A stretch of 61,802 nucleotides of DNA, the filler included. It is 3 parts of 3 records of this genome, joined end to end, with 100 filler letters (N's around TTAATTAATTAA, not from the genome) between each part and the next. Parts side by side here need not be neighbours in the genome. Positions count along the whole stretch, not along the records: positions 1 to 25,850 come from SRR20825006_1345; 2 more parts are not named here. One strand, 5' to 3'. The position numbers and the translations under genes were made by a program. Positions 540 to 44,632 of this stretch are shown one piece after another (the stretch's first letter is position 1; each line of letters begins with the position of its first letter). The notes beneath the pieces are model-generated. The model was not told the origin of the DNA. It saw only the letters and a program-made list of their open reading frames with translations, and made no database searches.

Positions 540-3500
540 CTATTCGGCCGCTGTCGTGGTCGCGAGTTCCTCGCCCCACTCAACATTTTCGGCCTTGCGG
601 ACCACCACAAACTCATCCCGGTTCGATCCCACGGTTCCGTAGTAATTGAAGCCATAGGAAAGCTGAGCATACCCACCGATCATGTGCGTCGGCTTCACCA
701 CAGCCCGTGTGACGGAGTTGTGAATTCCACCGCGGCCTCCGGTCGTTTTTGATATCGGGGTGTTGATGATTTTTTCTTGCGCGTGATACATCATCGTCAT
801 GCCTTCCGGCACACGCTGGCTTACCACCGCCCGGGCCATGATGGCGCCGTTCGAGTTATAGAGCTCGATCCAATCATTATCCTTTACATCAATTTTGCGG
901 GCGTCGATCTCCGATATCCACACGACGGGACCACCCCGGTTGAGGGTCAGCATCAACAGGTTATCGGAGTAGGTCGAGTGGATGCCCCATTTCTGGTGTG
1001 GAGTAATCCAATTAAGCGCCACCTGTTTCTGACCATCACCAAATTTATCGATGACCGGAGCGATAGTTTTGGTGTTCACAGGTGCCTTGTAAACACAGAA
1101 GCCCTCCCCAAAGTCACGCATCCATTCGTGATCCTGATAGAACTGCTGGCGGCCAGTGAGTGTGCGCCATGGAATAAGCTCATGCACGTTGGTATAGCCA
1201 GCGTTATAGCTAACATGTTCATCCTCGAGGCCCGACCAAGTAGGCGAAGAAATAATCTTGCGCGGCTGAGCCTTAATGTCGTGGAAGCGGATTTTCTCCT
1301 CTGCCTTCGACTTAGCGAGATGGGTATGCTCTCTGCCGGTGATCTTGCCGAGCGCTGCCCAAGACTTGACCGCCACTTGGCCATTGGTTTCTGGCGCGAG
1401 CGAAAGCACAACCTCGGTCGCATTCACGTCCGTCACGATCATAGGCATGCCTTCATTGGCACCGGTCTCGTCATGTACACCGTTCAATCGGCCGAGAAGC
1501 TCCACTTCCTCTTCCGTGTTCCAGGCAATGCCCTTGCCGCCGTTGCCGACCTTGCTCATGAGCGGGCCGAGCGCGGTGAAACGCTTGTAGGTGTTGGGGT
1601 AGTCCCGCTCTACTTCAATGATGGAAGGCATGGTCTTACCTGGGATGGGCTCACATTCACCCTTCTTCCAGTCAGTGACACCAAGTGGCTGGGCCATTTC
1701 GCCCGGCGTATCGTGCAAGATTGGCAAGGTGACCACATCCTTCTCAACACCAAGGTGACCGACACAAACCTCCGAGAATTTCTCAGCCAGACCTCGGTAT
1801 ATGTCCCAGTCGCTGCGGCTTTCCCATGCTGGGTCTACTGCGCGAGTCAGCGGGTGGATGAAGGGATGCATGTCAGACGTGTTGAGGTCGTTCTTCTCAT
1901 ACCAAGTGGCAGAGGGCAGAACGATATCCGAATACACGCATGTGGTAGACATACGGAAGTCGAGCGTGACCACCAGATCGAGTTTGCCTTCGGGTGCTTC
2001 GTCATGCCACACGACCTCGCTCGGCCTTAAGCCGCCGGTTTCCCCCATATCCTTACCAAGAAGGCCATGCTGGGTGCCAAGCAGATGCTTGAGCATATAT
2101 TCATGCCCCTTACCTGACGAACCCAGGATATTCGAACGCCAGATAAACATATTGCGTGGGAAGTTTTTCGGATCATCCGGATCTTCACAGGCAAAGGCCA
2201 GCTCGCCTGACTTCAATTTGTCTACTACATAGTCGGCAGCTTTTACTCCTGCCTTTTCCGCAGCTCTGGCGACCCTTAACGGGTTGTCATTGAGTTGGGG
2301 TGCAGAAGGCAACCAGCCCATGCGTTCGGATTGAACATTGCAGTCCAGGAGTGTGGTATTCTTCCACTTCTCCTTATCCGCAAGCGGGGAGAGGATTTCA
2401 TCCACGTCAAGCTTTTCATACCGCCACTGGTTTGAGTGGTTGTAGAAGAAGCTCGTGGAGTTCATGTGCCGAGGCGGACGCGACCAATCCAGCCCGAAGG
2501 CTAATGGTTGCCAGCCCGTCTGCGGACGCAGCTTTTCCTGCCCCACATAGTGGGCCCAACCACCTCCCGACTTGCCCACACAGCCGCACATGATCAAGAG
2601 GTTCATGATACCCCGATAGATCATGTCCATGTGGTACCAGTGATTGACGGCGGCGCCGAGGATCACCATTGAGCGACCCCGCGTCTGGTCCGCATTGGTG
2701 GCAAACTCGCGAGCAACTTGAATGACCTTGCGACGGTCTACGCCAGTGATTTTTTCCTGCCATGCCGGAGTATAGGGTACATCGTCGTCATAGCTTGCGG
2801 CTACATTGTCACCACCCAGACCACGGTCCACACCATAGTTCGCAACCATCAGGTCAAAAACCGTCGCCACCTTCACTGGGCCGTCCTTAGTCTCAATCGT
2901 CTTGATCGGTACATTGCGCTCAAGCACGCTACCGTGGTCGGTATGTTTGAAGATAGGCTGGTCGTTGACGATATTACCGAAATACGGGAACGCCACAGCC
3001 TCGACTGTGTCGCTGCTCTCAACGAGGGTAACTTTCGGCCAGACATCACTGCCGTCCGCCACATTCTTTAACTCAAGGTTCCACTTGCGGCTTTCGTCCC
3101 AGCGTGAACCGATAGTGCCATTTGGCACACACACGTCGCCCGTATTGCCATCAAGGATGACAGCCTTCCATTCGGCGTTTTTGGCTTCGCCAAGAGCGTT
3201 TTTCATATCGGACGCACGCAGTAGGCGGCCCGGCACCAATTTGCCATCTTTCTCGTCAAGACGTATGAGGAACGGCATATCGGTATACATGCGGCAATAG
3301 TCGTCAAAATACTCCGACTTGCCAGCCGTGTGGAACTCCTTCAACACCACATGGCCCATGGCCATAGCCATGGCGCTATCCGTGCCTTGACGTGGGTTGA
3401 GCCAAATGTCTGTCAGCTTCGCTACTTCGGAATAGTCAGGCGTGACGGAAACGGTCTTGGTGCCCTTGTAACGTACCTCAGTGAAGAAGTGCGCATCCGG

Positions 3501-4286
3501 CGTACGTGTTTGTGGCACGTTCGAACCCCAGGCAATGATATAACCCGAATTGTACCAGTCCGCGCTTTCAGGCACATCCGTTTGCTCGCCCCATGTTTGT
3601 GGCGATGACGGCGGCAGATCGCAGTACCAGTCATAAAAGGACATGCACACTCCGCCAATGAGCGACAGGTAACGGCTGCCCGCAGCATAGGAAACCATGG
3701 ACATGGCTGGTATGGGTGAGAAACCCACAATCCGGTCCGGCCCGTGTTCCTTCGCTGTGTAGACATTGGAGGCGGCGATCAGCTCGTTCACTTCGTCCCA
3801 GCTTGCGCGCACAAAACCACCAAGGCCGCGCACCTTCTTGTACTCACGTGCCTTCTTCGGATCGGATACAATGCTACCCCAGGCATCAACCGGGTCGCCA
3901 AGTTCGGCCTTTGCCTTACGCCATAGCTCGATGAGACGGCCGCGTACCATCGGGTACTTCAGCCGTGCCGCGCTATAGAGATACCAGCTATAGCTCGCCC
4001 CCCGGGCACACCCACGGGGTTCGTGGTTCGGCAGGTCGGGCCGGGTTTTCGGGTAGTCCGTCTGCTGAGTTTCCCAAGTCACAAGGCCGTTCTTGACATA
4101 GATTTTCCAGCTGCAAGAGCCCGTGCAGTTCACACCGTGGGTGGACCGCACCACCTTGTCGTGGGACCAGCGGCCTCGATAGGCTTTTTCCCATGAGCGA
4201 TCCTCATCGGTGGTGATGCCATGGCCGTCAGAGAACGCCTCTGGCGACGTGGTAAAATAGGAGAGCCTGTCGATAAAGTTGCTCAT
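540..4286 (-). CDS. narG: Respiratory nitrate reductase alpha subunit (1248 aa)
   Basis: THGVNCTGSC FS0 motif, EPRGCARG, SFYDWYCDLPP, TPHQKWGIHS; start moved to MSNFIDRL, which follows a GGAG RBS. Confidence 0.98.
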   Translation of the reverse strand: MSNFIDRLSYFTTSPEAFSDGHGITTDEDRSWEKAYRGRWSHDKVVRSTHGVNCTGSCSWKIYVKNGLVTWETQQTDYPKTRPDLPNHEPRGCARGASYSWYLYSAARLKYPMVRGRLIELWRKAKAELGDPVDAWGSIVSDPKKAREYKKVRGLGGFVRASWDEVNELIAASNVYTAKEHGPDRIVGFSPIPAMSMVSYAAGSRYLSLIGGVCMSFYDWYCDLPPSSPQTWGEQTDVPESADWYNSGYIIAWGSNVPQTRTPDAHFFTEVRYKGTKTVSVTPDYSEVAKLTDIWLNPRQGTDSAMAMAMGHVVLKEFHTAGKSEYFDDYCRMYTDMPFLIRLDEKDGKLVPGRLLRASDMKNALGEAKNAEWKAVILDGNTGDVCVPNGTIGSRWDESRKWNLELKNVADGSDVWPKVTLVESSDTVEAVAFPYFGNIVNDQPIFKHTDHGSVLERNVPIKTIETKDGPVKVATVFDLMVANYGVDRGLGGDNVAASYDDDVPYTPAWQEKITGVDRRKVIQVAREFATNADQTRGRSMVILGAAVNHWYHMDMIYRGIMNLLIMCGCVGKSGGGWAHYVGQEKLRPQTGWQPLAFGLDWSRPPRHMNSTSFFYNHSNQWRYEKLDVDEILSPLADKEKWKNTTLLDCNVQSERMGWLPSAPQLNDNPLRVARAAEKAGVKAADYVVDKLKSGELAFACEDPDDPKNFPRNMFIWRSNILGSSGKGHEYMLKHLLGTQHGLLGKDMGETGGLRPSEVVWHDEAPEGKLDLVVTLDFRMSTTCVYSDIVLPSATWYEKNDLNTSDMHPFIHPLTRAVDPAWESRSDWDIYRGLAEKFSEVCVGHLGVEKDVVTLPILHDTPGEMAQPLGVTDWKKGECEPIPGKTMPSIIEVERDYPNTYKRFTALGPLMSKVGNGGKGIAWNTEEEVELLGRLNGVHDETGANEGMPMIVTDVNATEVVLSLAPETNGQVAVKSWAALGKITGREHTHLAKSKAEEKIRFHDIKAQPRKIISSPTWSGLEDEHVSYNAGYTNVHELIPWRTLTGRQQFYQDHEWMRDFGEGFCVYKAPVNTKTIAPVIDKFGDGQKQVALNWITPHQKWGIHSTYSDNLLMLTLNRGGPVVWISEIDARKIDVKDNDWIELYNSNGAIMARAVVSQRVPEGMTMMYHAQEKIINTPISKTTGGRGGIHNSVTRAVVKPTHMIGGYAQLSYGFNYYGTVGSNRDEFVVVRKAENVEWGEELATTTAAE

Positions 4287-4312
4287 GATGTTTCTCCAGA
4301 TGCTCTTTTCGA

Positions 4313-5956
4313 TTATGGATTCTGCACGTAGGCGTTTTTTCGCAGGTAGAACCACCAGTTGGTCAGGATGCAAACGCCATAGAAAATGGTGAAACCGTAC
4401 AGTGCGAATTCTGGGGTCGTGGCTTTGATTTGTTCACCAAACACTTGCGGAATGAAGAACGCTCCATAGGCAGCAACCGCCGACGTCCACCCCAAAACAG
4501 GGCCGGTCTGTTCCTTATCAAAAACCATGGCGATAGTTCGGAAGGTGGAGCCATTGCCAACACCTGTGGCGGCAAACAGCACGATGAACAGGACCAGGAA
4601 TGGCCAGAAATAATCTTCCGGTGTGGCCGAACCATAGGCCGCTTTCATATAGTAAGCGACACCCAGTGCGGCCCCAGCCATGATCACGCTAATGATTTGC
4701 GTTACACGTGCCCCGCCCCAACGATCAGCCAACATGCCGCCGACAGGCCGGATGAGTGCGCCGATAAAGGGCCCCATCCACGCATACATCAGTGCACTGG
4801 GCCCACTGGGGTTCGGCGTCGTGTGGGTCATTACCCCTTCTACCAGGAGATGCTGATATCCAAACACCACCTTAATCGCCAATGGCAGCGCGGCTGAAAA
4901 GCCAATAAAAGAACCAAAGGTCATCGTATAGATGAGCGACATCGACCAAGTATGCTTGTTACCAAAAATCTTGAACTGACGTGCCAGATTTGTCTGGATT
5001 CTGCCGGGAATTAGTTTCATGGCAAAGACTGTCAACGCAATCACCAGCGGCAACACGATGAATTTCGACACTTCCAAACCGGAGCCGCCAAAGCTAGCTG
5101 GCAGCATTAACCACAATCCAAAAGCCGCCGTGGCAAAGCCGATTAACAACAATCCGCAGATTTTGCTAAAAGCTGAAACCGCACTGTCAGTATCTGGCGA
5201 AACATGCTCGTCCCGGATAGTGTTCATGCCAAACCAGGTGGCGAAAGCCAGAGGGATCAAAAGCAGCAACCAAACCCAACCGGCGTTGAAGATATAGGTC
5301 TCCGTGCCGGCAGGTATTTTGCCAATCAACGTGCCGGACATGGCCTGCAACGTCATGCTATCGCCGCCAAATAGTGCAAAGGTCATCACCAGCGGCACCA
5401 ATATCTGCATCGTCGTGACACCGAAATTGCCGAGGCCTGCATTCATACCTAGCGCATACCCCTGTATCTTACGCGGATAGAAGAAACTAATATTTGACAT
5501 CGAAGACGCGAAGTTGCCGCCACCTAGGCCAGACAGCAATGCCACCAGTTGAAACTGCCACAATGGTGTATTCACATCTTGAAGAAGAAACCCTGCAGCT
5601 GCGGCCGGAACGATAAGCAAGGTGGTGGTTAAAAAGATGGTGTACCGCCCTCCCGCCAGACGGATAAAAAACGAACTCGGAATGCGCAGGGTGGCACCGG
5701 AAAGCCCGGCGATAGCTGTAAGAGAGAACAGTTCATCGCGCGAAAAATGAAACCCAAGGTTCAGCATCTGCACCGTAATGATGCCCCAATAAAGCCAGAC
5801 CGCGAAGCCGCACAAGAGCGACGGGATCGAGATCCACAGGTTTCGGCTGGCTATCTTCTGGCCCACTGACGCCCACTGAGCGTCGTCATCAGGGTTCCAG
5901 CCATAGAGATCGCGGCCTTTGACCTGCAATTCCATATTCTGTTTCTTTTCAAACAT
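4313..5956 (-). CDS. narK: NarK-family nitrate/nitrite MFS transporter (NarK2-like)
   Basis: RNLWISIPSL, GGGNFASSM, GNGSTF nitrate-signature motifs; directly upstream of narG. Confidence 0.92.
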   Translation of the reverse strand: MFEKKQNMELQVKGRDLYGWNPDDDAQWASVGQKIASRNLWISIPSLLCGFAVWLYWGIITVQMLNLGFHFSRDELFSLTAIAGLSGATLRIPSSFFIRLAGGRYTIFLTTTLLIVPAAAAGFLLQDVNTPLWQFQLVALLSGLGGGNFASSMSNISFFYPRKIQGYALGMNAGLGNFGVTTMQILVPLVMTFALFGGDSMTLQAMSGTLIGKIPAGTETYIFNAGWVWLLLLIPLAFATWFGMNTIRDEHVSPDTDSAVSAFSKICGLLLIGFATAAFGLWLMLPASFGGSGLEVSKFIVLPLVIALTVFAMKLIPGRIQTNLARQFKIFGNKHTWSMSLIYTMTFGSFIGFSAALPLAIKVVFGYQHLLVEGVMTHTTPNPSGPSALMYAWMGPFIGALIRPVGGMLADRWGGARVTQIISVIMAGAALGVAYYMKAAYGSATPEDYFWPFLVLFIVLFAATGVGNGSTFRTIAMVFDKEQTGPVLGWTSAVAAYGAFFIPQVFGEQIKATTPEFALYGFTIFYGVCILTNWWFYLRKNAYVQNP

Positions 5957-5995
5957 AGTTCTTCTCCTTGTCGGACCGAGAGGGAGACAAGGGCC

Positions 5996-7306
5996 TCAGC
6001 CCTTGAGCCCTTCAAGTTCCGGCAGATTGCGGGGGCCGCGAAGCTCGGGAATGCGTTTCTTATCAAGCCGACGGATGGCGAAGTGCATCCATGTCAGGGC
6101 AATGGCAACAAGGATAGTCAGCAGCATGAAGCAACTGGTCCATACACCAATAAAATCATTCATCATGCCAAAGGTGATCGGCAGGAAGAAGCCGCCAAGG
6201 CCACCTATCAGTCCCACCATGCCACCGACTGAACCCACATGATCCGGATAATAGACGGGGATGTGCTTGTAGACGGCGGCTTTACCGAGCGACATGAAGA
6301 AGCCAAGAATGATTGTCAGTCCCACAAACACTTCAAGCGGAATAGTAATGTTGAAGTTAAGGGGTCCTGTGATGCCAGCGACGGTATAATCTGTGGCCGG
6401 ATATGACATTATGAAGGTGCAAGCAACACTGGCAATGAACGTCCAGTACATGACCGCGCGGGCGCCGTACTTATCGGACAGCCAACCACCAAACGCCCGG
6501 AAGATTGAGCCAGGCAACGCGTACGCGGCAGCAAGCATGCCAGCGGTTGCCAACTCGAGTTCGTAAGCACCGACATAGTAGCGCGGGAGCCAAAGTGCGA
6601 GCGCGACATAGGCCCCGAACACAAAGAAGTAATATAGCGAGAAGCGCCAAACCTGCAGGTTCTTGAGTGGCTCGAGCTGCTCGACGAAAGAGGGGTGTTT
6701 AGCACCTGTCAGCTTGTTCGAAGCATGAACAGGATCATCTTTGGTAAAAATGAAGAACAGCACAGCAGTTACCGCGAGTGTGACTGCATAAACCTGTGCC
6801 ACACTTTGCCACGCACCCCCGAGCACGACTAAAAGGAGCGGCGCTGCGAAGTTGGTGACGGCAGCGCCGACGTTGCCCATACCGAAGATGCCGAGCGCAG
6901 TACCCTGTTGCTCTTTCGGATACCAGCGCGAGACGTAAGCCACCCCGACCGCGAAGCTGCCACCCGCCAGACCAACCCCGAGGGCCGCAACGAGGAACAT
7001 TTCGTATGTCGTCACCAGGGTCAGAAGATAGGCAGCAAGCGCTGTAGCCAGCATTTGCAGAACATAGACCATGCGGCCACCATATTGGTCGGTCCAGATG
7101 CCGAGGAAAAGCCGACTAAGCGATCCTGTTAGCACCGGCGTCGCCACAAGCACACCGAACTGGGTGTCGCTCAGGCCCAAGTCAGCCTTAATCTTGACAC
7201 CAATAATGGAAAAAATTGTCCAAACAGCGAAACAAACGGTAAAAGCCAGCGTGCTCGCGGTTAGTGCGCGACGCTTTTCCAGTGGTGTTGTCATAGTGCC
7301 GTTCAC
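5996..7306 (-). CDS. narK: NarK-family nitrate transporter (NarK1-like)
   Basis: AFTVCFAVW, GLAGGSFAVG, GKAAVYKHIP motifs; GTG start at 7306 chosen from the AGGAGG RBS (ATG at 7294 is the alternative). Confidence 0.9.
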   Translation of the reverse strand: MNGTMTTPLEKRRALTASTLAFTVCFAVWTIFSIIGVKIKADLGLSDTQFGVLVATPVLTGSLSRLFLGIWTDQYGGRMVYVLQMLATALAAYLLTLVTTYEMFLVAALGVGLAGGSFAVGVAYVSRWYPKEQQGTALGIFGMGNVGAAVTNFAAPLLLVVLGGAWQSVAQVYAVTLAVTAVLFFIFTKDDPVHASNKLTGAKHPSFVEQLEPLKNLQVWRFSLYYFFVFGAYVALALWLPRYYVGAYELELATAGMLAAAYALPGSIFRAFGGWLSDKYGARAVMYWTFIASVACTFIMSYPATDYTVAGITGPLNFNITIPLEVFVGLTIILGFFMSLGKAAVYKHIPVYYPDHVGSVGGMVGLIGGLGGFFLPITFGMMNDFIGVWTSCFMLLTILVAIALTWMHFAIRRLDKKRIPELRGPRNLPELEGLKG

Positions 7307-7372
7307 CTTGTCCTCCTGACATGGGGTTATCCGGTTATGGAGGACATTGTGACGGCTTACGGAAATTCGTGA

Positions 7373-7386
7373 TTGATCCATATCAA
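7373..7386. promoter_or_regulatory. FNR/Dnr-type binding site
   Basis: TTGATccatATCAA, a perfect TTGAT-N4-ATCAA, between the divergent narK and regulator genes. Confidence 0.88.
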
Positions 7387-7541
7387 GCACCACCGTTTTC
7401 TTCGGCATGGTGGTGTTTCACATATGGGAAGGACGTCGCCGATGGCATTGTGTAGACAAAATTGCGCACTACTTTTATGGTTGGAACACTTACGAATGGC
7501 ACGCTTGGCATTTGTGGAAATGCGCCCGGGACGCTTGAAGC

Positions 7542-9152
7542 TTGAGCATAGTGACAGAGAAAACTGACCTGGCAGGAAGCCTGCTGAACAAGCTGGGCGA
7601 GACTGTTCATCAGCTTCAGCGCGAGCGCGGCTGTGCTGGCCTTTTCCTCGACAGCCTTGGTAAAATCTTTGCGCGTCAATACGACACCCAAAATGGCCGG
7701 GTGAACGACGCTGTGGCTGAGCTGCGCACCTTCCTTGCACGCGACGAAGCAAAAAAGGGGTTGCCCAACGGTTTTTGGTCCGACCGTCTGATGCCCCTAA
7801 TCAACAAATTTGAGCAAATCGACCAAACGCGAGATAAAATACGCCTGCTGGCTTACCGCTACACTCAGGCGCTGAACACCTATACATTCTCCTTCACCGT
7901 GCCCACAATCGACATAATGATCGAACTGGCACAGCGACAGGAAGGCTACGATTCGAAACTTGTTTCAGCCTATTCCAACTTCCTGCAATGGAAAGAGCGC
8001 CTCGGCATGGAACGGGCACTAGGAGCGCGCGGCTTCCACACCTATTCATTCCGGAATCAGGAATTTTGCGACCGTTTCGTCGCTCTCATCGCCGAGCAGA
8101 AAGCCTATTTCGAGACATTTAAAGCGCTTGCCTCTGCTGACCAGATCCAGATTGTAGAGGAACATGTCGAAGCAGGCGATTTTGATGCCCTAGCCGAAGT
8201 GAACACCCTTCTGGAAGATGGCGCACCACTCGGTGAAATCGAAAAATATACAGGCGAAGCATGGTTTGAGCTCCTGTCCCGCATGATCGATGGACTGAGA
8301 GAGGCAGAGCAAAAGCTGGTAGAGGGCCTAGTGCAAACTGCCGCCAAACCAGCAAATTCGCCCGCGCCTGCGACGCGGCAAAAAGGAGCAGTAGCCCAGA
8401 TTACACAGTATCGGCCGTTTCTTAAGTCGCTACCCATGCTCGCTGCAATCGATGACCACGAGTTGGACGAACTTTTATCCTTCGCTCAGATCCGCGAATA
8501 TGAAAAAGACAAGCTATTGTTCTTACGAGACGAGCCTGCCACACGGCTCTATGTCGTTTTACAAGGCTGGGTGAAGGTCTACAACGGACTGGAGACCGGC
8601 GAGGAAGCAATCCTCCAGATGCTAGGGAGCGGAGAAACACTACTAGAGGCCGCTGTTTTCCTCGATGTACCTACTCCCGTAAGCGCTCAAGTTGTTGAAA
8701 ACGCATTGCTACTCTCCATCCCCGCACCCGTTATCCGCCAGCGCATACAATCCAGTCCACAACTCGCTGTCAGCATGCTTAATACCGTTTCATTGCGTTC
8801 ACAGCGCTTGGTGCAGCAGCTGGAGCTTTCTCGCCTCAAAACCGCCCAGGAGCGGGTTGGCTGGTTTCTGCTTAGGCTTGCACTCAACCAGCGCGCACCT
8901 GACGGCACCATCTATCTCCCTTATGAGAAATCGATCATAGCCTCCTATCTGGACATGCGACCTGAAACTTTTTCAAGGACTCTGCAAAAATTCAAACAGG
9001 ACGGCTTCGAAGTCTCGAGCGACCACGTGATAGCTCCGGATCCATTTTCTCTATGTGAATTTTGTGATGTGGAACTTGCCACCCAGTGCGTACGCGCCAG
9101 CACCGAAGAATGTCCTCGTCCCGAACTGAGCGATATATCATTTCGTAACTGA
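7542..9152 (+). CDS. NIT (nitrate/nitrite-sensing) domain fused to a Crp/Fnr-family regulator, with a C-terminal 4-Cys tail
   Basis: N-terminal VHQLQRERG and WKERLGMERALG NIT-like motifs; cNMP-type barrel (LYVVLQGWVKVY); HTH IASYLDMRPETFSRTL; tail CEFCD-x6-C-x7-C; TTG start uncertain. Confidence 0.82.
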   Translation: MSIVTEKTDLAGSLLNKLGETVHQLQRERGCAGLFLDSLGKIFARQYDTQNGRVNDAVAELRTFLARDEAKKGLPNGFWSDRLMPLINKFEQIDQTRDKIRLLAYRYTQALNTYTFSFTVPTIDIMIELAQRQEGYDSKLVSAYSNFLQWKERLGMERALGARGFHTYSFRNQEFCDRFVALIAEQKAYFETFKALASADQIQIVEEHVEAGDFDALAEVNTLLEDGAPLGEIEKYTGEAWFELLSRMIDGLREAEQKLVEGLVQTAAKPANSPAPATRQKGAVAQITQYRPFLKSLPMLAAIDDHELDELLSFAQIREYEKDKLLFLRDEPATRLYVVLQGWVKVYNGLETGEEAILQMLGSGETLLEAAVFLDVPTPVSAQVVENALLLSIPAPVIRQRIQSSPQLAVSMLNTVSLRSQRLVQQLELSRLKTAQERVGWFLLRLALNQRAPDGTIYLPYEKSIIASYLDMRPETFSRTLQKFKQDGFEVSSDHVIAPDPFSLCEFCDVELATQCVRASTEECPRPELSDISFRN

Positions 9153-9154
9153 AC

Positions 9155-9168
9155 TTGATCTGCATCAA
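9155..9168. promoter_or_regulatory. FNR/Dnr-type binding site upstream of the moa operon
   Basis: TTGATctgcATCAA, perfect consensus. Confidence 0.88.
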
Positions 9169-9212
9169 ACCTCCTCTTCCTCTATCGCGCTAACAAACAG
9201 GTCTCGAGTGCT

Positions 9213-9338
9213 CAACTCCGAAGCCTCGGTGCCTACGTTCGGGCTCCCCTTACTCAGAATATGGCACCGGGGCCGCGGCACAACGCCGCCGGGTTTGACC
9301 GGGAAACCGCCAGGCCTCTCGTGATTGGAAAGGAGATT
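9213..9338 (+). ncRNA. Moco RNA motif (molybdenum cofactor riboswitch candidate)
   Basis: ACTCCGAAGCC...GGTGCCTA...TATGGCACC..GGCCG...CCGGG...GGAAAC..GCCTCTCGTGATTGGAAAGGAG matches the Moco motif layout, ends at the RBS and sits directly 5' of moaA; boundaries approximate. Confidence 0.82.
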
Positions 9339-9342
9339 CAGC

Positions 9343-10320
9343 GTGCACCTGACAGACGGTTTCGACCGAACATTTCAGTATTTACGCCTTTCGGTGACGG
9401 ATGCCTGCAATTTCCGGTGCAGCTATTGCTTGCCAGATGGTTTCAAGAAATGCGGCGGCCCCTTACCACTGAACCGGGATGAGCTGCGTCGTGCAGCTAA
9501 AGCCTTTGTCTCGCTCGGCCTTAGAAAAATCAGGTTGACCGGAGGTGAGCCAACCGTGCGGCCCGACTTCGATGATATTCTCGCTGACATCCAAGCAGTA
9601 GAAGGCCTGGCTAAGCTTGCGCTCACCACCAACGGCTATAAACTGCATGAACGCGTGGAACGTTGGCATGGGCTTGGGCTCAACGCCATCAACGTGAGCC
9701 TCGACAGCCTGAATCGGGAGACATTCAGACGCATCACCGGTCACGACCGTTGCCATGAAGTGCTTCATGGAGTCCATCGAGCACTAGAGGCAGGATTCAG
9801 CGATGTAAAGATTAACGTGGTTTATATGAAAGGTATCAATGATCACGAAGTCGCGGATTTTATCACGCTCACAGAAATCCTTCCTGTCTCCATCCGCTTC
9901 ATCGAGTTGATGGAAACTGGCGATCATACGGCTTTTTTTCGTAACCACCATATTTCCACCGACGTAATCACCGACCAGTTGAAAGCACGCGGCTGGGTCC
10001 CAACCATCAAAGCGGCAGACAGCGGTCCCGCCAATGAATTCATGCACACCAACCACGCTGGGCGCATAGGCCTCATCGCGCCCTATTCGAAAGATTTCTG
10101 CAAAAGTTGTAATCGGTTGCGCTTCTCGAGCCAAGGCAATCTGCACCTGTGTTTATTTGGGAACTTTGGCATTCCTCTACGCGACTATCTGCAATCTGAC
10201 GAACAGTTTGAAGAACTACGAGAAAAGCTCATCACCGCTGTGCGACACAAGGACATCGGCCACCAACTCGCATATGGCAACTCCGGCATGACCCGCAACC
10301 TATCTGCCATCGGGGGCTAA
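9343..10320 (+). CDS. moaA: GTP 3',8-cyclase (radical SAM)
   Basis: YLRLSVTDACNFRCSYC, LTGGEP, FCKSCNRLR, C-terminal IGG; GTG start after AAGGAG. Confidence 0.96.
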   Translation: MHLTDGFDRTFQYLRLSVTDACNFRCSYCLPDGFKKCGGPLPLNRDELRRAAKAFVSLGLRKIRLTGGEPTVRPDFDDILADIQAVEGLAKLALTTNGYKLHERVERWHGLGLNAINVSLDSLNRETFRRITGHDRCHEVLHGVHRALEAGFSDVKINVVYMKGINDHEVADFITLTEILPVSIRFIELMETGDHTAFFRNHHISTDVITDQLKARGWVPTIKAADSGPANEFMHTNHAGRIGLIAPYSKDFCKSCNRLRFSSQGNLHLCLFGNFGIPLRDYLQSDEQFEELREKLITAVRHKDIGHQLAYGNSGMTRNLSAIGG

Positions 10321-10321
10321 C

Positions 10322-10879
10322 ATGGCGTCCACATTTCCACAACCTAGCTGCACCGGCGTCATTCTGGCGGGTGGTGCGTCACGCCGCATGGGTCGCGACA
10401 AAGCCACATTACCCTGGGGTGATAGCACGCTGCTCGATCATATGCGCGCCCGGCTCTTCAAGGCCGGTGTGGACCGCGTTGTCATACTCGGCAAACCGGA
10501 TGTTGAAGATGGCGTGGCCGATGAAACGCCTTTTACCGGGCCGGTCCCCGCCCTTCTGAGCTATCTGCGCGCTTCTGGCGCCGGACAGCGGCATGTTGTT
10601 GTACCTATCGATATGCCCTATCTGAGCCCAGCCCTACTCGCACCGCTTGCATCAGCTACTCGCTGGACAAGGTACGATGGTTACGTTTTCCCCTTCTCCG
10701 CCATCGGGGGTGAAATGGTTTCGGGCAGTGGTCCGCGCCTACGTGATCTGCTCCGCGCAAACAAAGCAACGCTTCTGACTGTACCGGCCTTCGCGGACAG
10801 TGCTTTCCGTAACCTCAATCATCCGGGTGATCTCCCGTCCAGCCATCCCTCTCACGCAAACGAAAGGCGCTGCCAATGA
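10322..10879 (+). CDS. mobA: Molybdenum cofactor guanylyltransferase (short, divergent)
   Basis: ILAGGASRRMGRDKA, PIDMP, FRNLNHP motifs; position in the moa operon. Confidence 0.8.
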   Translation: MASTFPQPSCTGVILAGGASRRMGRDKATLPWGDSTLLDHMRARLFKAGVDRVVILGKPDVEDGVADETPFTGPVPALLSYLRASGAGQRHVVVPIDMPYLSPALLAPLASATRWTRYDGYVFPFSAIGGEMVSGSGPRLRDLLRANKATLLTVPAFADSAFRNLNHPGDLPSSHPSHANERRCQ

Positions 10880-12153
10880 ATGCGCAAGCTCCCATCAGCT
10901 CCAAGACACTGGTTATGCAATCCTACACAGACAGCCTCACAGCTATCTGTGATACAGCGGAGGTTTTAGCACCGCACCCGGTGCCTCTCTCCGCAGCCTC
11001 AGGGAAAGTCTTGGCCTCTGACATCCGTGCATCAATCGCTGTGCCCAGTTTTGAAAATAGCGCCATGGACGGCTTCGCTTTTGCCTCCGCAGATGTAGCT
11101 GCGGCTTCGGAGAATGGGCCTGTGTCTCTTCTTGTCGTGGGCGCCAGTATTGCGGGGGATACGGCAGGCCTGTCCCATCTTGCCTCTGGACGAGCAGCAA
11201 AGATCATGACTGGCGCACCGATGCCTGACGGCGCGGACACCGTGATGCCGGTCGAAGCCGCAAGTTGGGACCACGAATACCTGACATTCACAAGCCCATA
11301 CCCGAAAGGCAGGCATGTCCGTCTTGTGGGGCAAGACATCGCGACAAACGATCTACTTCTCGGGGCTGGTACCCGAATCAAGGCTGCACATCTGCCCATG
11401 CTGTGCGCAAGTGGCGCTGCAACGGTGATGGTATTCGAAAGACCGAAGGCATGCTGGATAAGCACCGGGCAGGAAATCAGTGATGACTTCACCAAACCGC
11501 TTGCGCCCGGGCATATCTATAACGCCACTGCACTTTATGGGCAATCGGTGTGCGAGGATATGGGCGTCGAGTTTACCAGCGCCACTACGGTGCGTGACAC
11601 GCCGCAAGACTTTGCAACGGCACTTGAAACCGCACTTGAAGGGGATGCCAACATCATCTTGTCCACCGGCGGTGTATCGGCAGGGCAATATGATTTTGTA
11701 AAACCGGTGCTGGAAGATTTTGGCGCCCACATTCACGTGCACCGAGTGCGGATAAAGCCGGCGAAACCGATCCTTTTTGCAACACTGCCAGGAGGTAAAT
11801 ATTTCTTCGGTCTGCCTGGCAACCCGATCTCGACTGCGCTGGCACTCAGAGCTTTTGTGAGCCCTTTCGCTCACTTGCTTTCCGGTGTCGCGTATGAACG
11901 GCCGCTGAGGGCTCGGTTGACCAATGAGGCCCACGGCGCATCAGGCAAGACTACGTTCCTCATGGGCAAGCTCACCACAAATGAGACAGGACAACTACAC
12001 GTGACCGCCGACACAAGGCAGCAGTCTTTCCAAACCGCGCCATTTGGTCGCAGCGATGCCTGGATTGTTATCCCCGAGGGGGTGGATGCGTCAGCCAAAG
12101 GCGAGTTGGTGGACTGCATTCCCTTCACCTCAGGCATGTGTGACAGGAGTTAG
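10876..12153 (+). CDS. moeA: Molybdopterin molybdotransferase
   Basis: PSFENSAMDGFA, IMTGAPMPDGADTV, STGGVSAG.YD, GLPGNP. Confidence 0.95.
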   Translation: MNAQAPISSKTLVMQSYTDSLTAICDTAEVLAPHPVPLSAASGKVLASDIRASIAVPSFENSAMDGFAFASADVAAASENGPVSLLVVGASIAGDTAGLSHLASGRAAKIMTGAPMPDGADTVMPVEAASWDHEYLTFTSPYPKGRHVRLVGQDIATNDLLLGAGTRIKAAHLPMLCASGAATVMVFERPKACWISTGQEISDDFTKPLAPGHIYNATALYGQSVCEDMGVEFTSATTVRDTPQDFATALETALEGDANIILSTGGVSAGQYDFVKPVLEDFGAHIHVHRVRIKPAKPILFATLPGGKYFFGLPGNPISTALALRAFVSPFAHLLSGVAYERPLRARLTNEAHGASGKTTFLMGKLTTNETGQLHVTADTRQQSFQTAPFGRSDAWIVIPEGVDASAKGELVDCIPFTSGMCDRS

Positions 12154-12157: not shown

Positions 12158-13987
12158 ATGGAAACCAACACGCGTTCGAACGCATATCAGGCCTACTTCC
12201 TCGGCCCCAAGGCAGAAAACGAAGCTTGGGTCAGGGCAGAGTTCCAAGCCACTCTTGACCACTGGTTCCATTGGCGAAAACAGCTTTTCACCAATGACCC
12301 AAGTGTATCCAGCCCCGAAGATCGACGATCACCGGGTTACCTCAGAGCGAGGGAACGCATTAGTCAGGGCCTTGAGGAACTGAACGAAATGCTGAAGGCA
12401 GAGGTCCCTAAATTTCCACCGCGTTATATCGGCCATATGGTCTCGGAGCTAACGCTCCCGTCCCTACTTGGCCACTTTGCCATGCTGCTGCACAATCCCA
12501 ATAACACAAGTCGTGACGCCTCCAACATCGGCTCAAAGGTCGAGGTAGAAGTTATTGCTATGCTGGCAAAAATGCTGGGGTTCAACCCAGCCCGGGCCAC
12601 AGGCCACATAACCGGAGGCGGCACGGTTGCAAATTTCGAAGCTGTATGGCGCGCGCGCTTCCGCCAAGATCACTGGCTGAGCCTGGCACTTTATCTCGCG
12701 GAAAATCGTGGCTTAAAACTTGATCTGTTCGATGCCGCCCATATGGGCTGGAAACGCTTTGGCCAGTTGCTCTATGAACACAGTGTCCCCATCGACTCCC
12801 TAAAGGACTATAGCGCGGTGGCCAGCAACCCCTACCACTTTGGCGAACGCATGACCCGCGCTTTCGGTATGCCTTATCGTGGCCCAGTACTGCTGGTGCC
12901 GGAGAATAAGCATTTTTCCTGGACCAAGGCGGTAAATATTTTTGGTCTTGGTGAGGAGGCCTTCTGGCCTGTTCCCCTTGACGGCATGGGCAAGATGGAT
13001 GTCGCCGCTCTGCAACAGCTAATCGAAGTTGCCGAGCGCTCCAAACGCCCAATCATCATGGTCGTGAGCGTAGCCGGCACCACTGAGACCGGCGAAATTG
13101 ACCCGATAGACCAGGTGCAAGGCATCCTGAATGCCCAGAAGGAGCGCCGGGGCTGGGATATTTGGCATCATGTGGATGCGGCTTATGGTGGTTTCCTATG
13201 CACCCTCCTTCGGGGCGGTGCAAGTTCACAGGTGTTGAGCGTTTCCAACAGCGCCGCTCTCAACACGATTTCCGAGGTGCATTCGGTCACTATAGATCCG
13301 CACAAACTTGGCTATGTGCCCTATGCCTGCGGTGCCATCATCACTCGCGATCACGAAGCCTATTCCGTCTCGGGATTCGAGGCCCCATACCTCGAACGCC
13401 AACAGGAAATGCCAGACAAATGGTCTACTACTCTTGAAGGGTCACGCTCAGCAGCCGGTGCTGCTGCCACATGGCTGACTGGCAAAACGCTCGGCTTCAA
13501 CCCGAAAGGACTTGGCGCCGTGATCGAACAGACAATCCACGCCTGCCGGGCGGTGAAACAGAAGATCGAGAAAGCCATCCCTACAGCACATATCCTCACC
13601 CCGGTCGAAACAAATATCATGTGTTTCTCTCTAACCACCAAGGCTAAATCACTGCGTGAAGCTAACAGGCTCACCAGCACAGTGTTTCAGAAATTTGTCG
13701 ATTGCCCCGACTTTTCCATTTCGAAGACAACTCTTTCCATGAGCTCACATCACAAGGTTATCCAGCGTCATGTAGCCGGGTATAAAGGATCAATTGATGA
13801 TGACCATCTGGTGTTGTTGCGTTGCGTCTTCATGAACCCCTTCTGGGCAGAAGAGGAAATTAGGGAACGGCTGAGCAATGAGCTCATACATCATATCAAG
13901 GTCTGGTCCAACGACGCCGATTTACAGCAGGCAGAACAGGCTTCGCTGATGGCACGTGCCGAGAAAAACACGAAACTGGCATCATGA
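12158..13987 (+). CDS. Group II PLP-dependent decarboxylase (tyrosine decarboxylase-like, 609 aa)
   Basis: FLGPKAEN, PRYIGHM, NPNN, HVDAAYGG, SVTIDPHKLGY (PLP lysine); start moved to the ATG after AGGAG, 4 bp after the moeA stop. Confidence 0.85.
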   Translation: METNTRSNAYQAYFLGPKAENEAWVRAEFQATLDHWFHWRKQLFTNDPSVSSPEDRRSPGYLRARERISQGLEELNEMLKAEVPKFPPRYIGHMVSELTLPSLLGHFAMLLHNPNNTSRDASNIGSKVEVEVIAMLAKMLGFNPARATGHITGGGTVANFEAVWRARFRQDHWLSLALYLAENRGLKLDLFDAAHMGWKRFGQLLYEHSVPIDSLKDYSAVASNPYHFGERMTRAFGMPYRGPVLLVPENKHFSWTKAVNIFGLGEEAFWPVPLDGMGKMDVAALQQLIEVAERSKRPIIMVVSVAGTTETGEIDPIDQVQGILNAQKERRGWDIWHHVDAAYGGFLCTLLRGGASSQVLSVSNSAALNTISEVHSVTIDPHKLGYVPYACGAIITRDHEAYSVSGFEAPYLERQQEMPDKWSTTLEGSRSAAGAAATWLTGKTLGFNPKGLGAVIEQTIHACRAVKQKIEKAIPTAHILTPVETNIMCFSLTTKAKSLREANRLTSTVFQKFVDCPDFSISKTTLSMSSHHKVIQRHVAGYKGSIDDDHLVLLRCVFMNPFWAEEEIRERLSNELIHHIKVWSNDADLQQAEQASLMARAEKNTKLAS

Positions 13988-14023
13988 CACATGGTGCCAT
14001 CCATCCTCACGACAGATGGCCAG

Positions 14024-14371
14024 CTACCTGAACAACCAACCCCAATCTATCAAAGTAGGGTTGTCGATATATTTTTGTGGGTTGCTGACCACATCTTCAA
14101 GATAGCTCTTGTTCAAGCGCAGTACAGGCGCATCGCCAGCCTCAAGTCCTCGCTCTATATGGTCCATATAAACCGTCACTTCACATGTTGAAACCGGCAT
14201 GTCATCAACCAACACCAATTCAACGCCCCGGCCGGCCTGCGCTTCGCTGGCAGCCTGCCATATACGGTTATACGGAAACCGGTCGCAGCTGCGTGCCAAG
14301 GCTTCGTTACATATCTCTATATAGCGCTCGAGGTCATTCAGAGGTTTGCCGTTATCTGCTTGCTCTTCCAT
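14024..14371 (-). CDS. Hypothetical protein (115 aa)
   Basis: ATG with AAGGGAGA RBS; globular composition, ends YIDNPTLIDWGWL; FNR-like box upstream. Confidence 0.7.
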   Translation of the reverse strand: MEEQADNGKPLNDLERYIEICNEALARSCDRFPYNRIWQAASEAQAGRGVELVLVDDMPVSTCEVTVYMDHIERGLEAGDAPVLRLNKSYLEDVVSNPQKYIDNPTLIDWGWLFR

Positions 14372-14426
14372 CGGGTATTCTCCCTTCCATGCACAGCTAT
14401 CCAACCACAGCCAGCGAAAAAGGCGC

Positions 14427-14440
14427 TTGAGCAGGATCAA
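14427..14440. promoter_or_regulatory. FNR-type box (1 mismatch)
   Basis: TTGAGcaggATCAA, centred about 62 bp upstream of the 14371 start. Confidence 0.6.
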
Positions 14441-14494
14441 TTCTTGGAAACAATCTGCCCGGGGCATACAGGCACCCCGGGCAGGATAGGTTCC

Positions 14495-16873
14495 TCAATG
14501 AGAACCTCCACAAGAACCGCAGCAGATGCTGTCCGGCTGGGCCTCGTTCATAGCCAGTTGACTACCCGCTGCCACTCTCGCTGGTGTTTTATCATGAATG
14601 CCCGGCTGTATTGGCTGGCTCTCAAGCGGGCGCCGTTCACTACGGTCTAGGAGGCCCTTGATCACCTGCCATGCCACGGCGAGTGCCCCGATGATAAACA
14701 CCACATCCCCAATGGTGCGTACCCAACGCAAGGTTTCGAGCAGATTGCTCTGCATGAAGCTCTCGCTACGGGCGTACCAAAGGCCTTCCGATGCACTGGC
14801 GACAAACTGGATGATGCCAACGGGCAAGAGGCTGGTGAACAGCATGAGCACAAGCCCACCATTGAGGCCGTAGAACGCTGTTTTCATCAGTTTCTCGTCA
14901 AAAACCATTGCTGGCCGGATATAACGCAGCACCAGAATGGCAAAACCAAGCGCAAGGAAGCCGTACACACCAAAGAGAGCGGCATGTGCGTGCGTGGCCG
15001 TGGTATTGAGACCTTGGATGTAATACAGCGCAATCGGCGGATTGATCGAGAAACCAAGGACGCCAGCCCCGAGCATATTCCAGAAAGCCACAGCGACAAA
15101 GAACATAAGCGGCCACTTGAGCTGGTCCATCCAGGGCGCACGGTTCCGAAGTTTCCAATGTTCCCAGGCCTCGTGCCCGAGCACGATGAGCGGCACCACT
15201 TCAAGTGCACTGAAAGTGGCCCCCACTGCCATTACCGGTGTTGTGGTGCCGGAAAAATAGAGGTGGTGGAAAGTGCCCGGTACACCGCCCAAGAGAAAGA
15301 GCGATGCAGATGCCAACGCCGCAATCGTCGCCAGACGTTTGGAAACAAGCCCCATGCTGCTGAAGATGAAAGCGAGTGCTGCCGTGGCAAAGACCTCGAA
15401 AAAGCCTTCGACCCACAGATGAACAATCCACCAGCGCCAGTATTCCATCACTGAAATATGGGTACGCTCACCATAGAAAAAGCCAGCACCGTAAAAGAAA
15501 CCGATAGCAACGACCGACGCGGTAAAGAGCGCCAGCAGATGTTTGTCGCCCGGCTGCATAAGCGCAGGCACAATGGCCCGCATCATCAGCACAAGCCACA
15601 GCACAACGCCCGTGAACTTACCAATCTGCCACAGCCTGCCAAGGTCGACGTATTCATAGCCCTGATGGCCGAGCCAGAAGTTCCATTCCGGCGGCATCAC
15701 CTGCGCAATGGCAAGATAGTTGCCAATAAAGGACCCTGCGACCACTGCGATGAGAGCCCAGAAGAGGATATCCACGCCAAGTTTCTGGTATTTTGGGTCC
15801 TTGCCGCCATTGATAATGGGCGCCAGGAAGAGGCCCGCGGCAAGAAAACCGGTAGCGATCCAGAACAGAGCAGATTGGATGTGCCAGGTACGCACAAGGG
15901 TATAAGGGAACCATTTGGAGGTCTCAATGCCATAGAAACCCTGCCCTTCCACAGTATAGTGAGCTGTAAACCCTCCCAGGAAAACCTGAAAGACAAACAA
16001 CGCTACAACAACAAAGAGGTATTTGCCTAGCGCCCGCTGCGATGGTGTAAGCCGGAAACTGGTCAGCGGGTCTTTGGCAGGTGCGGCGGGCTCCTCTTCA
16101 TCTTGCCCACGCATGAAGGACCAGGCCCAGATGAGCCCACCAACACCAGCGATCAACAGCACCACGCTGACAATGGACCAAACGATATTCTCCGCCGTTG
16201 GCACATTACCTATCAAGGGCTCGTGCGGCCAGTTGTTGGTATAGGTTGCACCGTCCGGCGTACGCTCGGTTGACGCAGCCCATGCGGTCCAAAAGAAAAA
16301 CTCTGTCAGCCTTGCGCGGCGGTCTGCGTCCGGAAGCGTGAGCTCCTTCATAGCGTAACTTTCGCGGGTAGGCTGCAATTCGGGCGAACCACCAAACAGC
16401 CGGTCGTAATAGTCCGCGGTCCGTTCGATCGCCCGCTGGCGGCGCTGAGTGAGGACGAGCATGTCGCCTGCAGCATCATAAGTGTTGCTACGGTAGGCCT
16501 GTTTCAGCTCATACTGAAGGTTGTTCTGCTGCGCTCCCGACAGAGTTTCATAAGGCTTGCCATAGACATCCTGTGCAGCGAGCTCGAGCCAGGCCACCAG
16601 CTCACGGTGCAACCAATCAGCCGTCCAGTCCGGCGCCTGATACGCACCGTGCCCCCAAATGGAGCCAAGCTGCATGCCACCGACAGACTGCCACGCCGTT
16701 TGGCCATCAAGGATACTGTCCTTGCTCATAAGTGGTGTACCATCTTCGGTCACCACAAGGTCAGGAATAGGGGGCGCTTCCCGGTAAACCTCTCTACCGA
16801 AATATCCGAGAAAGCCGAATGTGACCACCAGTACGGAGATCAGTATCCACCATAATTTATAATATCTAGCCAT
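14495..16873 (-). CDS. norB: Quinol-dependent nitric oxide reductase (qNor)
   Basis: GSIWGHGAYQAPDW, WWIVHLWVEGFFE, GTFHHLY, HAHAALFG heme/FeB ligands; long N-terminal qNor domain; start MARYYKLWW overlaps the ytfE stop. Confidence 0.95.
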   Translation of the reverse strand: MARYYKLWWILISVLVVTFGFLGYFGREVYREAPPIPDLVVTEDGTPLMSKDSILDGQTAWQSVGGMQLGSIWGHGAYQAPDWTADWLHRELVAWLELAAQDVYGKPYETLSGAQQNNLQYELKQAYRSNTYDAAGDMLVLTQRRQRAIERTADYYDRLFGGSPELQPTRESYAMKELTLPDADRRARLTEFFFWTAWAASTERTPDGATYTNNWPHEPLIGNVPTAENIVWSIVSVVLLIAGVGGLIWAWSFMRGQDEEEPAAPAKDPLTSFRLTPSQRALGKYLFVVVALFVFQVFLGGFTAHYTVEGQGFYGIETSKWFPYTLVRTWHIQSALFWIATGFLAAGLFLAPIINGGKDPKYQKLGVDILFWALIAVVAGSFIGNYLAIAQVMPPEWNFWLGHQGYEYVDLGRLWQIGKFTGVVLWLVLMMRAIVPALMQPGDKHLLALFTASVVAIGFFYGAGFFYGERTHISVMEYWRWWIVHLWVEGFFEVFATAALAFIFSSMGLVSKRLATIAALASASLFLLGGVPGTFHHLYFSGTTTPVMAVGATFSALEVVPLIVLGHEAWEHWKLRNRAPWMDQLKWPLMFFVAVAFWNMLGAGVLGFSINPPIALYYIQGLNTTATHAHAALFGVYGFLALGFAILVLRYIRPAMVFDEKLMKTAFYGLNGGLVLMLFTSLLPVGIIQFVASASEGLWYARSESFMQSNLLETLRWVRTIGDVVFIIGALAVAWQVIKGLLDRSERRPLESQPIQPGIHDKTPARVAAGSQLAMNEAQPDSICCGSCGGSH

Positions 16874-17540: not shown

Positions 17541-17610
17541 TTTCTTCTCCTTTACCCTTCATGTCCGAAGCCAAGGGCGCAGTAATTGGTGGATGTGTCT
17601 GGCCTTATAA

Positions 17611-17655
17611 AATGTATTTAACATACATCTTTAAAAGATGTAAAATATATGCATA
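17611..17655. promoter_or_regulatory. Tandem NsrR boxes in the divergent ytfE-norB / ybaN-nsrR promoter
   Basis: ATGTATttaacATACAT (17612-17628) and ATGTAAaatatATGCAT (17638-17654) match ATGYAT-N5-ATRCAT. Confidence 0.85.
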
Positions 17656-17675
17656 TTAAAAAGTCAAGAGGATAG

Positions 17676-18092: not shown

Positions 18093-18095
18093 ACT

Positions 18096-44629: not shown

Positions 44630-44632
44630 CTT

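Follow-up and report, generated by a model that had tools for sequence, protein, structure and literature searches.

We analysed a stretch of 61,802 nucleotides (the window), whose first 25,850 positions come from the record SRR20825006_1345. It holds, at 7542..9152 on the plus strand, a regulator gene in which a NIT domain is fused to a DNA-binding module of the Crp/Fnr family. Judging from its sequence and surroundings, the product, called here the NIT-Crp protein, is probably a one-component, nitrate-responsive activator of the nitrate reductase (nar) and molybdenum cofactor (moa) genes, possibly gated by oxygen through an iron-sulphur (Fe-S) tail. The question at stake is how nitrate is detected in Alphaproteobacteria that have no NarX-NarL system. 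Part of them use NarR, for which the available part of a review does not give the sensing mechanism (PMC8139620). The NIT-Crp family provides a directly testable answer: a NIT domain connected to an output of the FNR type, for which ligand residues and DNA sites can be predicted, in a family whose cultured hosts are Kordiimonas lacus, K. lipolytica and K. marina, with orthologues of 67-70% identity.

Domain architecture and distribution of the NIT-Crp protein

The full-length regulator matched NIT, cNMP_binding and HTH_Crp_2 in Pfam, and its features are the following.

7542..9152, plus strand: NIT-Crp/Fnr regulator gene, open reading frame (ORF) of 536 amino acids with a TTG start
7602..8330, plus strand: NIT domain, residues 21-263 (Pfam, E 1.2e-35, 124.5 bits for a cut-off of 24.9)
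8331..8411, plus strand: Ala/Pro-rich flexible linker, residues ~264-290 (variable in the alignment, low predicted local distance difference test score, pLDDT)
8493..8753, plus strand: cNMP-binding-type beta-barrel, residues 318-404 (Pfam cNMP_binding, E 3.2e-16)
8850..9056, plus strand: Crp-type helix-turn-helix (HTH), residues 437-505 (Pfam HTH_Crp_2, E 1.1e-9)
8964-8978, plus strand: ETFSR recognition helix, residues 475-479, inside HTH_Crp_2
9054..9116, plus strand: C-terminal putative metal-site motif, C505-x2-C508-D509-x6-C516-x7-C524-P525 (alignment)

A preliminary description of this DNA, made from the letters alone, had proposed a soluble chain with an N-terminal NIT-like domain of about 260 residues, an Ala/Pro linker, a cNMP-type barrel, an HTH with an ETFSR helix and a tail with cysteines spaced C-x2-C-x7-C-x7-C. 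All of these parts were recovered: the N-terminal domain scored as NIT far above the cut-off, the other two domains were found by Pfam where expected, and no membrane segment was detected by hydropathy, the highest 19-residue Kyte-Doolittle mean being 1.44. The further idea of that description, one chain that might combine direct nitrate binding with an O2-labile cluster, is supported in part: it withstood three checks at the sequence level, on the NIT score, on the conservation of the tail cysteines and on the linkage to nar. An alternative GTG start at 7551 is suggested by a database protein of 533 amino acids, 99% identical. The AlphaFold model of the 536-residue protein has a mean pLDDT of 87.7 and a predicted template modelling score (pTM) of 0.64. 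Its sole stretch with a pLDDT below 50, residues 269-280, lies in the linker, which differs in both length and sequence between relatives. Searched with Foldseek, the whole model gave solely Crp-family chains among the matches listed, NasR not being among them.

In the model, the NIT domain is an all-helical double four-helix bundle, with a pLDDT mostly above 90. With HMMER it matched the structure of NasR (4akk) at E 2e-12, and its pairs E28-R29 and E157-R158 aligned with positions 76-77 and 202-203 of the 4akk chain, which become E49-R50 and E175-R176 of NasR by way of an inferred 27-residue tag offset. Conservation was read from an alignment of 110 relatives (38-88% identity): R29 is kept in all 107 non-gap rows, and R158 in 110/110. 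The profile score above gathering, together with the conserved paired 'ER' arginines, places the domain in the NIT family (PF08376). NasR is itself responsive to nitrate and nitrite, and a sensor built on it no longer responds to nitrate when it carries R50A or R176A (PMC9581486); E175 and R176 form the predicted nitrate pocket (PMC7496416). R29 and R158 are accordingly the predicted nitrate-pocket arginines of the present protein.

The C-terminal half of the model consists of a beta-barrel (residues 316-394), a long helix (406-430), then the HTH. Foldseek gave target-normalised scores (TMt) of 0.78-0.84 to CRP, GlxR and FNR, with ~0.8 for holo-FNR of Aliivibrio fischeri, and a structural-genomics protein of Ruegeria (3fx3/3h3z) matched this Crp module at E 4e-33. 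Barrel, dimerisation helix and C-terminal winged HTH thus assign it to the Crp/Fnr superfamily. The recognition helix is of the E-x-x-S-R type that marks FNR-type specificity, E475, S478 and R479 each being present in 110/110 relatives; DNA binding itself is a prediction. On alignment with CRP and FNR, Val380 stands at the place of Arg82, the cAMP phosphate-binding residue of E. coli CRP. As this position is Val in 96/110 relatives and Arg in none, a cyclic nucleotide ligand is unlikely. The beta4-beta5 loop is an RNA polymerase contact in FNR and CRP, and its residues G353 and E355 are invariant in the relatives.

Other identities were tried and rejected. FNR proper ligates its [4Fe-4S] cluster by three N-terminal cysteines and a central one; the N-terminus is here a NIT domain, and alignment with FNR of E. 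coli and with a Kordiimonas FNR that has N-terminal cysteines revealed no equivalent cysteines. No NCBIfam model reached its cut-off. FtrB (NF006901) was the best-scoring named family, with 112.4 bits for the whole protein against a curated cut-off of 211, and was set aside for this reason; the Fnr model gave 35 bits against 228. A NasR-type antiterminator was discarded because no ANTAR domain was matched (Pfam, E up to 1) and the C-terminal half is a Crp module.

A word-indexed protein search gave 189 matches, and architecture was tallied on the best 120 of them. All three domains were found in 119, the exception being a partial protein; such a recurrence is far beyond chance. Database names for these relatives are generic ('nitrate- and nitrite sensing domain-containing protein', 'CRP-like cAMP-binding protein'), i.e. 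the family is recorded merely as domain lists, and no published characterisation of a NIT-Crp regulator was found in the open-access literature. Searching one genome per GTDB species, relatives were encoded in 142 species, mostly marine Alphaproteobacteria. The best 80 loci are mostly from Alphaproteobacteria (Kordiimonas, Robiginitomaculum, Emcibacter and metagenome-assembled genomes, MAGs, labelled Rickettsiales), with a single gammaproteobacterial locus, in Exilibacterium. The nearest is L001, from a Kordiimonas sp. MAG, whose NIT-Crp protein is 99% identical, which places the window in this genus or very close to it. The 4.0 Mb genome behind it (G001) was used for the genome-wide searches, and the fusion is its sole NIT protein. 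Used by itself in an exhaustive search, the Crp module found 137 cluster representatives at E <= 1e-30; among the top 150 representatives, 58 have at least 300 amino acids, and Pfam NIT was present in 44 of these. On plasmids, 122 records matched, none of which covered at least 80% of the protein, so no fused form was found there. An Emcibacteraceae MAG (L058) carries two full-length NIT-Crp genes with four-cysteine (Cys4) tails, at 10001-11569 and 13083-14651, ~1.5 kb apart.

FNR boxes and predicted target operons on both sides of the gene

The regulator gene lies between two operons, each with a box and one with a riboswitch ahead of it.

540..7306, minus strand: narK2, narK1 and narG, divergent probable target operon (Pfam MFS_1 twice; Nitr_red_alph_N + Molybdopterin + Molydop_binding)
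7373..7386, no strand assigned: FNR box TTGATCCATATCAA, a perfect match to TTGAT-N4-ATCAA, in the narK promoter region
9155..9168, no strand assigned: FNR box TTGATCTGCATCAA, likewise a perfect match, in the promoter region of moaA, 3 nt past the regulator stop codon
9204..9351, plus strand: molybdenum cofactor (Moco) riboswitch heading moaA-mobA-moeA (Rfam RF01055, 72.8 bits for a gathering score of 36, E 1.1e-15)
9325..12153, plus strand: moaA, mobA and moeA, probable target operon (Pfam Radical_SAM + Mob_synth_C; NTP_transf_3; MoeA_N/MoCF_biosynth/MoeA_C)

NarK1 and NarK2 are nitrate/nitrite transporters and NarG is the nitrate reductase alpha subunit; the molybdenum cofactor synthesis genes moaA-mobA-moeA follow the regulator on the same strand, on its 3' side. 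Neighbourhoods and boxes were counted at the loci of the best 80 relatives, less the unassessable ones. A divergent NarK was found upstream in 67/69 loci having more than 2.5 kb upstream, and NarG was within reach in 65/80, with relatives reaching down to 35% identity. The moaA gene came within 2 kb after the regulator at 35/71 assessable loci. A NarX/PilJ-type sensor was absent in 4 of 5 Kordiimonas genomes.

Perfect TTGAT-N4-ATCAA palindromes occur only twice in the whole window, once on each side of the regulator gene, and simple arithmetic gives ~0.06 as the number expected in 62 kb. At the relatives' loci, an upstream box with at most one mismatch (between -450 and +30 of the regulator start) was found in 49/74, 17 of them perfect, and a downstream one (between -30 and +350 of the regulator end) in 32/76, of which 25 were perfect. 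For comparison, the background amounts to 64 perfect and 132 one-mismatch sites, 196 in total, in 1.33 Mb.

Alignment of 11 Kordiimonas-clade intergenic regions left only two strongly conserved blocks, the narK ribosome-binding site with the start region and the box, at a near-constant spacing from each other. Conservation of AGGAGG and of the start-codon region indicates GTG 7306, and not ATG 7408, as the likely start of narK2. The stretch between the box and the regulator start is variable in length and sequence, meaning that box 7373-7386 belongs to the narK promoter. A -10-like CACAAT is found on the narK strand, ~31 nt from the box centre. In class II activation, the mode of FNR-activated promoters, the activator site is centred ~41.5 nt ahead of the transcription start; with this spacing, narK transcription would start near 7338, on the minus strand. 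A sigma-70-like site facing the regulator (7453-7481, plus strand) was given no weight, since the scan of 7250-9400 yielded one such site for 1.1 expected. Among 23 sequencing runs considered for 5900-10400, none was listed as an RNA run.

On the other side, the Moco riboswitch was in the same place in 18 of the 19 relatives' loci examined. The likely moaA start is GTG 9343, with AGGAG at 9331, inside the 3' end of the riboswitch. The centre of the moaA box lies 42.5 nt before the riboswitch 5' end, and eight Kordiimonas-clade loci together with the window cover a range of 39.5-43.5 nt. We thus propose that the moa operon is under double control, by an FNR-type box and by cofactor feedback. 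The box shared by nar and the riboswitch-controlled moa operon predicts that enzyme and cofactor supply are co-regulated. The nearest genome, G001, contains 11 perfect boxes, against 1 for a control pattern. These did not define a clear regulon: several are inside ORFs, and others are near Usp, epimerase and fliM genes.

The cysteine tail, the proposed mechanism and its rivals

C505, C508 and C516 are each present in 110/110 relatives, and C524 in 109, the remaining protein being cut by a contig end; D509 is kept in 109/110 and P525 in 103/110. The spacing noticed in the window is exact in 108 of the 110, one more protein adding an extra cysteine and one ending at a contig edge, i.e. the tail cysteines are invariant in the aligned relatives. 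Block-mean pLDDT goes from 91 to 87 across residues 501-530 of the AlphaFold model.

The preliminary description had compared this tail with that of Bacillus Fnr, in which, in the available part of the paper, the [4Fe-4S] ligands are three C-terminal cysteines (C-x2-C-x4-C) and Asp141 (PMC3520743). The comparison stands in part. Like Fnr of B. subtilis and B. cereus, the NIT-Crp protein is a Crp/Fnr regulator with a C-terminal cysteine cluster that starts with C-x2-C, but it has four cysteines, spaced 2, 7 and 7, instead of the three plus Asp141 of that published motif (PMC3520743). Bacillus Fnr, compared here by this motif and not by sequence, is moreover from another lineage and without an N-terminal NIT domain.

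Among the top 150 Crp-module representatives, 89 carry the exact four-cysteine motif (40 proteins of at least 440 amino acids and 49 shorter ones), 23 a three-cysteine motif and 38 no motif. A maximum-likelihood tree was built from 47 Crp modules, rooted at the midpoint only and with long branches flagged; in it, the NIT fusions form one clade with a support of 98/94 (ultrafast bootstrap/SH-like approximate likelihood ratio test). Three stand-alone Cys4 proteins branch directly outside it; one more is nested in the fusion clade, and may have lost its NIT domain. The three-cysteine paralogs follow as sister group (83/78). The Cys tail predates the fusion, as it is also found in Crp proteins that stand alone. 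Stand-alone genes were also surveyed in 33 of 80 metagenome loci, those with a match reaching the tail: Cys4-tail genes were present in 9 of the 33, and 4 of these 9 adjoin narK or narG.

Genome G001 contains a single other cNMP-barrel Crp-type regulator besides the fusion.

7120-7866 of L249 (= G001 contig C1): Crp/Fnr paralog of 248 amino acids, with ETFSR and a C-terminal C-x2-C-x5-C

With the Crp module of the fusion it shares 34% identity, and it adjoins a radical-SAM gene (probably hemN-like), ompW, fixG, fixH, a gene for a FixI-type ATPase and ccoNOP. FNR-like boxes with one mismatch are found ahead of the radical-SAM gene, of ompW and of the oxidase genes. In other Alphaproteobacteria, genes of the FnrL/FixK type adjoin hemN and cbb3 oxidase genes. 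No FNR with N-terminal cysteines was found in G001. More generally, 11 genomes holding the fusion were sorted: 4 have an FNR with N-terminal cysteines, 5 the three-Cys-tail paralog, 2 neither and none both; in two Robiginitomaculum genomes, no other Cys-bearing E-x-x-S-R regulator was found. The paralog is a candidate C-terminal-cluster FNR of Alphaproteobacteria, and in the genome of the closest relative it probably reads the same boxes as a general anaerobic regulator.

In the mechanism that we propose, the NIT domain would bind cytoplasmic nitrate, and perhaps nitrite, around R29 and R158, as in NasR. By way of the flexible linker, the signal would reach the beta-barrel and the dimerisation helix, so that the HTH is released or reoriented, and the observed E-x-x-S-R helix would then read the observed TTGAT-N4-ATCAA boxes. 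Both operons, narK-narK-narG and moaA-mobA-moeA, would be activated from class II box positions; with boxes at both promoters, nitrate import, nitrate reduction and cofactor supply are proposed to be switched on together. The invariant C-x2-C-D-x6-C-x7-C-P tail would hold a metal centre. Metal binding by the tail is likely, and we think that an O2- or nitric oxide (NO)-labile [4Fe-4S] cluster is a more likely metal centre than zinc. The boxes might be shared with the paralog or, in other genomes, with a classical FNR, as FnrP and NarR co-regulate nar in Paracoccus (PMC8139620).

In its strongest form, this mechanism makes the single chain an AND gate, nitrate at the NIT domain and an O2-/NO-labile [4Fe-4S] cluster on the Cys4 tail being both needed, which we put forward tentatively. 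If so, the tail would mark FNR-like Fe-S sensors that hold their cluster by C-terminal ligands, a class not yet recognised in Proteobacteria; the NIT fusion would be one specialised offshoot of it, and the three-Cys paralog the general anaerobic regulator that replaces classical FNR. An Fe-S cluster on the Cys4 tail would also mean that proteobacteria have a second, independent route to an O2-sensing FNR, and that nitrate and anoxia are read by a compact one-protein switch, of possible use as a biosensor.

Several observations weigh against a nitrate-responsive activator with such a tail. The nar genes are not nearby at L025 and L067, 2 of the 69 assessable loci, and the upstream box at no more than one mismatch is missing in 25/74. 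With up to two mismatches, 25 boxes were found window-wide for 23 expected, a chance level, so that perfect boxes alone are informative. The distance from box to riboswitch is 29.5-30.5 nt at 4 other loci, 53.5-56.5 at 3 and 65.5-66.5 at 3. The class II geometry at moaA is therefore limited to the Kordiimonas clade, and the loci at ~30 nt are at odds with a transcription start placed 41.5 nt from the box. Both the fusion and the paralog carry ETFSR, and the flanking boxes could be served by the paralog alone. The tally of FNR types is phylogenetically non-independent: 4 of the 5 genomes with the three-Cys paralog are Kordiimonas, which makes the independent sample small. As for the ligand, one characterised NIT domain, that of PA4520 from P. 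aeruginosa, showed no binding of nitrate or nitrite, and the authors of that work suggested that NIT is a superfamily with varied ligands (PMC6381276), so the presence of NIT is no guarantee of nitrate binding. Finally, the profile of the tail found no solved Fe-S or zinc relative in the PDB (best E 0.11), its chance-level matches are mostly zinc fingers, and the Cys4 site could be a structural zinc site.

This last point leads to the rival that survives best, in which the protein senses nitrate only, the Cys4 tail holds structural zinc, and O2 control is left to a separate FNR-type regulator acting on the same boxes. Four cysteines with a C-x2-C are typical of zinc sites, the chance-level PDB matches point to zinc-binding modules, and the tail is compact and confident in the model (pLDDT 87-91, residues 501-530). 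A classical FNR moreover accompanies the fusion in 4/11 genomes, so that a second O2 sensor is not obviously needed. A redox role is supported, on the contrary, by the paralog, which has three cysteines as Bacillus Fnr, an fnrL-like neighbourhood, and occurs in genomes without classical FNR; the two Robiginitomaculum genomes, without other Cys-bearing E-x-x-S-R regulators, also speak against structural zinc. The C524-P525 pair, found in 103/110 relatives, recalls what we take to be ferredoxin-type cluster motifs. Overall, we regard the zinc explanation as rather unlikely.

It is improbable that the NIT domain has a ligand other than nitrate, be it nitrite only, another small anion or a partner protein. 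PA4520 and the suggested superfamily of varied ligands (PMC6381276) lend it some weight, as does NasR, which responds to nitrate and nitrite alike (PMC9581486). On the other hand, both arginines of the NasR nitrate response are invariant here, and genes for nitrate/nitrite transporters and nitrate reductase are almost always next to it. Least probable is a repressor or anti-activator that occupies FNR boxes without nitrate, blocks an FNR-type activator and is released by nitrate: fusion and paralog share the recognition helix, and similar boxes precede the radical-SAM, ompW and cbb3 genes, so that competition at shared sites is possible, but the fit to class II sites (~42 nt to the riboswitch 5' end, ~31 nt to the narK -10-like hexamer), the invariant G353 and E355 of the beta4-beta5 loop, and the activator nature of NarR, the positional analogue (PMC8139620), all argue against it.

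Known systems and further genes of the window

The closest functional parallel is NarR of Paracoccus pantotrophus and P. denitrificans. Both regulators belong to the Crp/Fnr family, have a recognition helix of the E-x-x-S-R type, and are divergent from narK-narG in Alphaproteobacteria without NarXL. NarR is described as a nitrate/nitrite-responsive activator, said to replace NarXL and to act on nar together with the O2 sensor FnrP; the available part of this source gives it no recognisable nitrate-binding domain or Fe-S cysteines (PMC8139620). On a Paracoccus alcaliphilus plasmid, a gene at the NarR position has the same divergent layout as the NIT-Crp gene. Its product, which is not the published NarR sequence, is 24% identical to the Crp module, has no Cys tail, and sits on a very long branch, making its place in the tree unreliable. 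The Crp module is nearer to an NnrR-like protein (32%, from a nor/nir cluster of a Roseibium plasmid) and to its own paralog (34%). Given the low identity and the additional sensor domain and Cys4 tail, NIT-Crp is probably a positional and functional analogue of NarR rather than an orthologue.

NasR of Klebsiella oxytoca (4AKK) resembles the present protein in being a soluble cytoplasmic one-component regulator with an N-terminal NIT domain and both critical arginines. It differs in its output, an RNA-binding ANTAR domain where a Crp-type DNA-binding module is found here, in having no Cys tail, and in sitting with assimilatory (nas) genes, whereas NIT-Crp is beside respiratory (nar) genes.

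With E. coli FNR and NarX-NarL, the NIT-Crp protein shares the proposed logic of anoxia plus nitrate for narK and narG, the same TTGAT-N4-ATCAA box and the same fold, but the N-terminal Cys cluster of E. coli FNR is absent from it. The single chain may replace these three proteins. In the ESM Atlas, the nearest neighbours are two clusters (68 and 635 members, scores 0.85 and 0.80) with the architecture PilJ + cNMP_binding + HTH_Crp_2. Nitrate-binding domains of the NarX/McpN type are PilJ domains (PMC6381276). These fusions, known here from cluster listings, have a sensor domain family different from NIT, and they suggest that nitrate sensors of the NarX type, too, have been joined to Crp regulators.

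At L025, on a Robiginitomaculum MAG chromosome, the NIT-Crp gene (9962-11533) has no nar gene within 10 kb. Its neighbours are a divergent mobA-like gene, two old-yellow-enzyme-type (flavin) oxidoreductases and a MarR regulator.

Farther downstream of the moa genes, the window carries an NO-detoxification cluster at 14495-18536.

14495-16993, minus strand: quinol-type NO reductase, NorB with a cytochrome-c-like domain
16866-17540, minus strand: ScdA/YtfE di-iron repair protein
18096-18536, plus strand: Rrf2 (NsrR-like) regulator, divergent

No FNR box with at most 2 mismatches was found in the promoter region of this cluster. The window also has a stretch of low GC content (18000-27300, 0.46-0.51 against ~0.54-0.60 around), which may be an inserted island. 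It contains an ORF of 1775 amino acids (19233-24560, plus strand), in which Pfam recognised nothing but a phage-integrase domain (residues 1263-1416), and a truncated histidine-kinase/receiver fragment (25031-25645, minus strand). Past the high-coordinate edge is a lone large-terminase gene (25903-27288, minus strand), with GC rising to 0.65. Another segment, at 38988-47981, has the appearance of a restriction-modification island that entered at a tRNA: a ResIII helicase gene (38988-41726), a DNA methylase gene (41642-43504) and a tyrosine integrase gene (43508-44629) are near a tRNA gene (47898-47981, minus strand).

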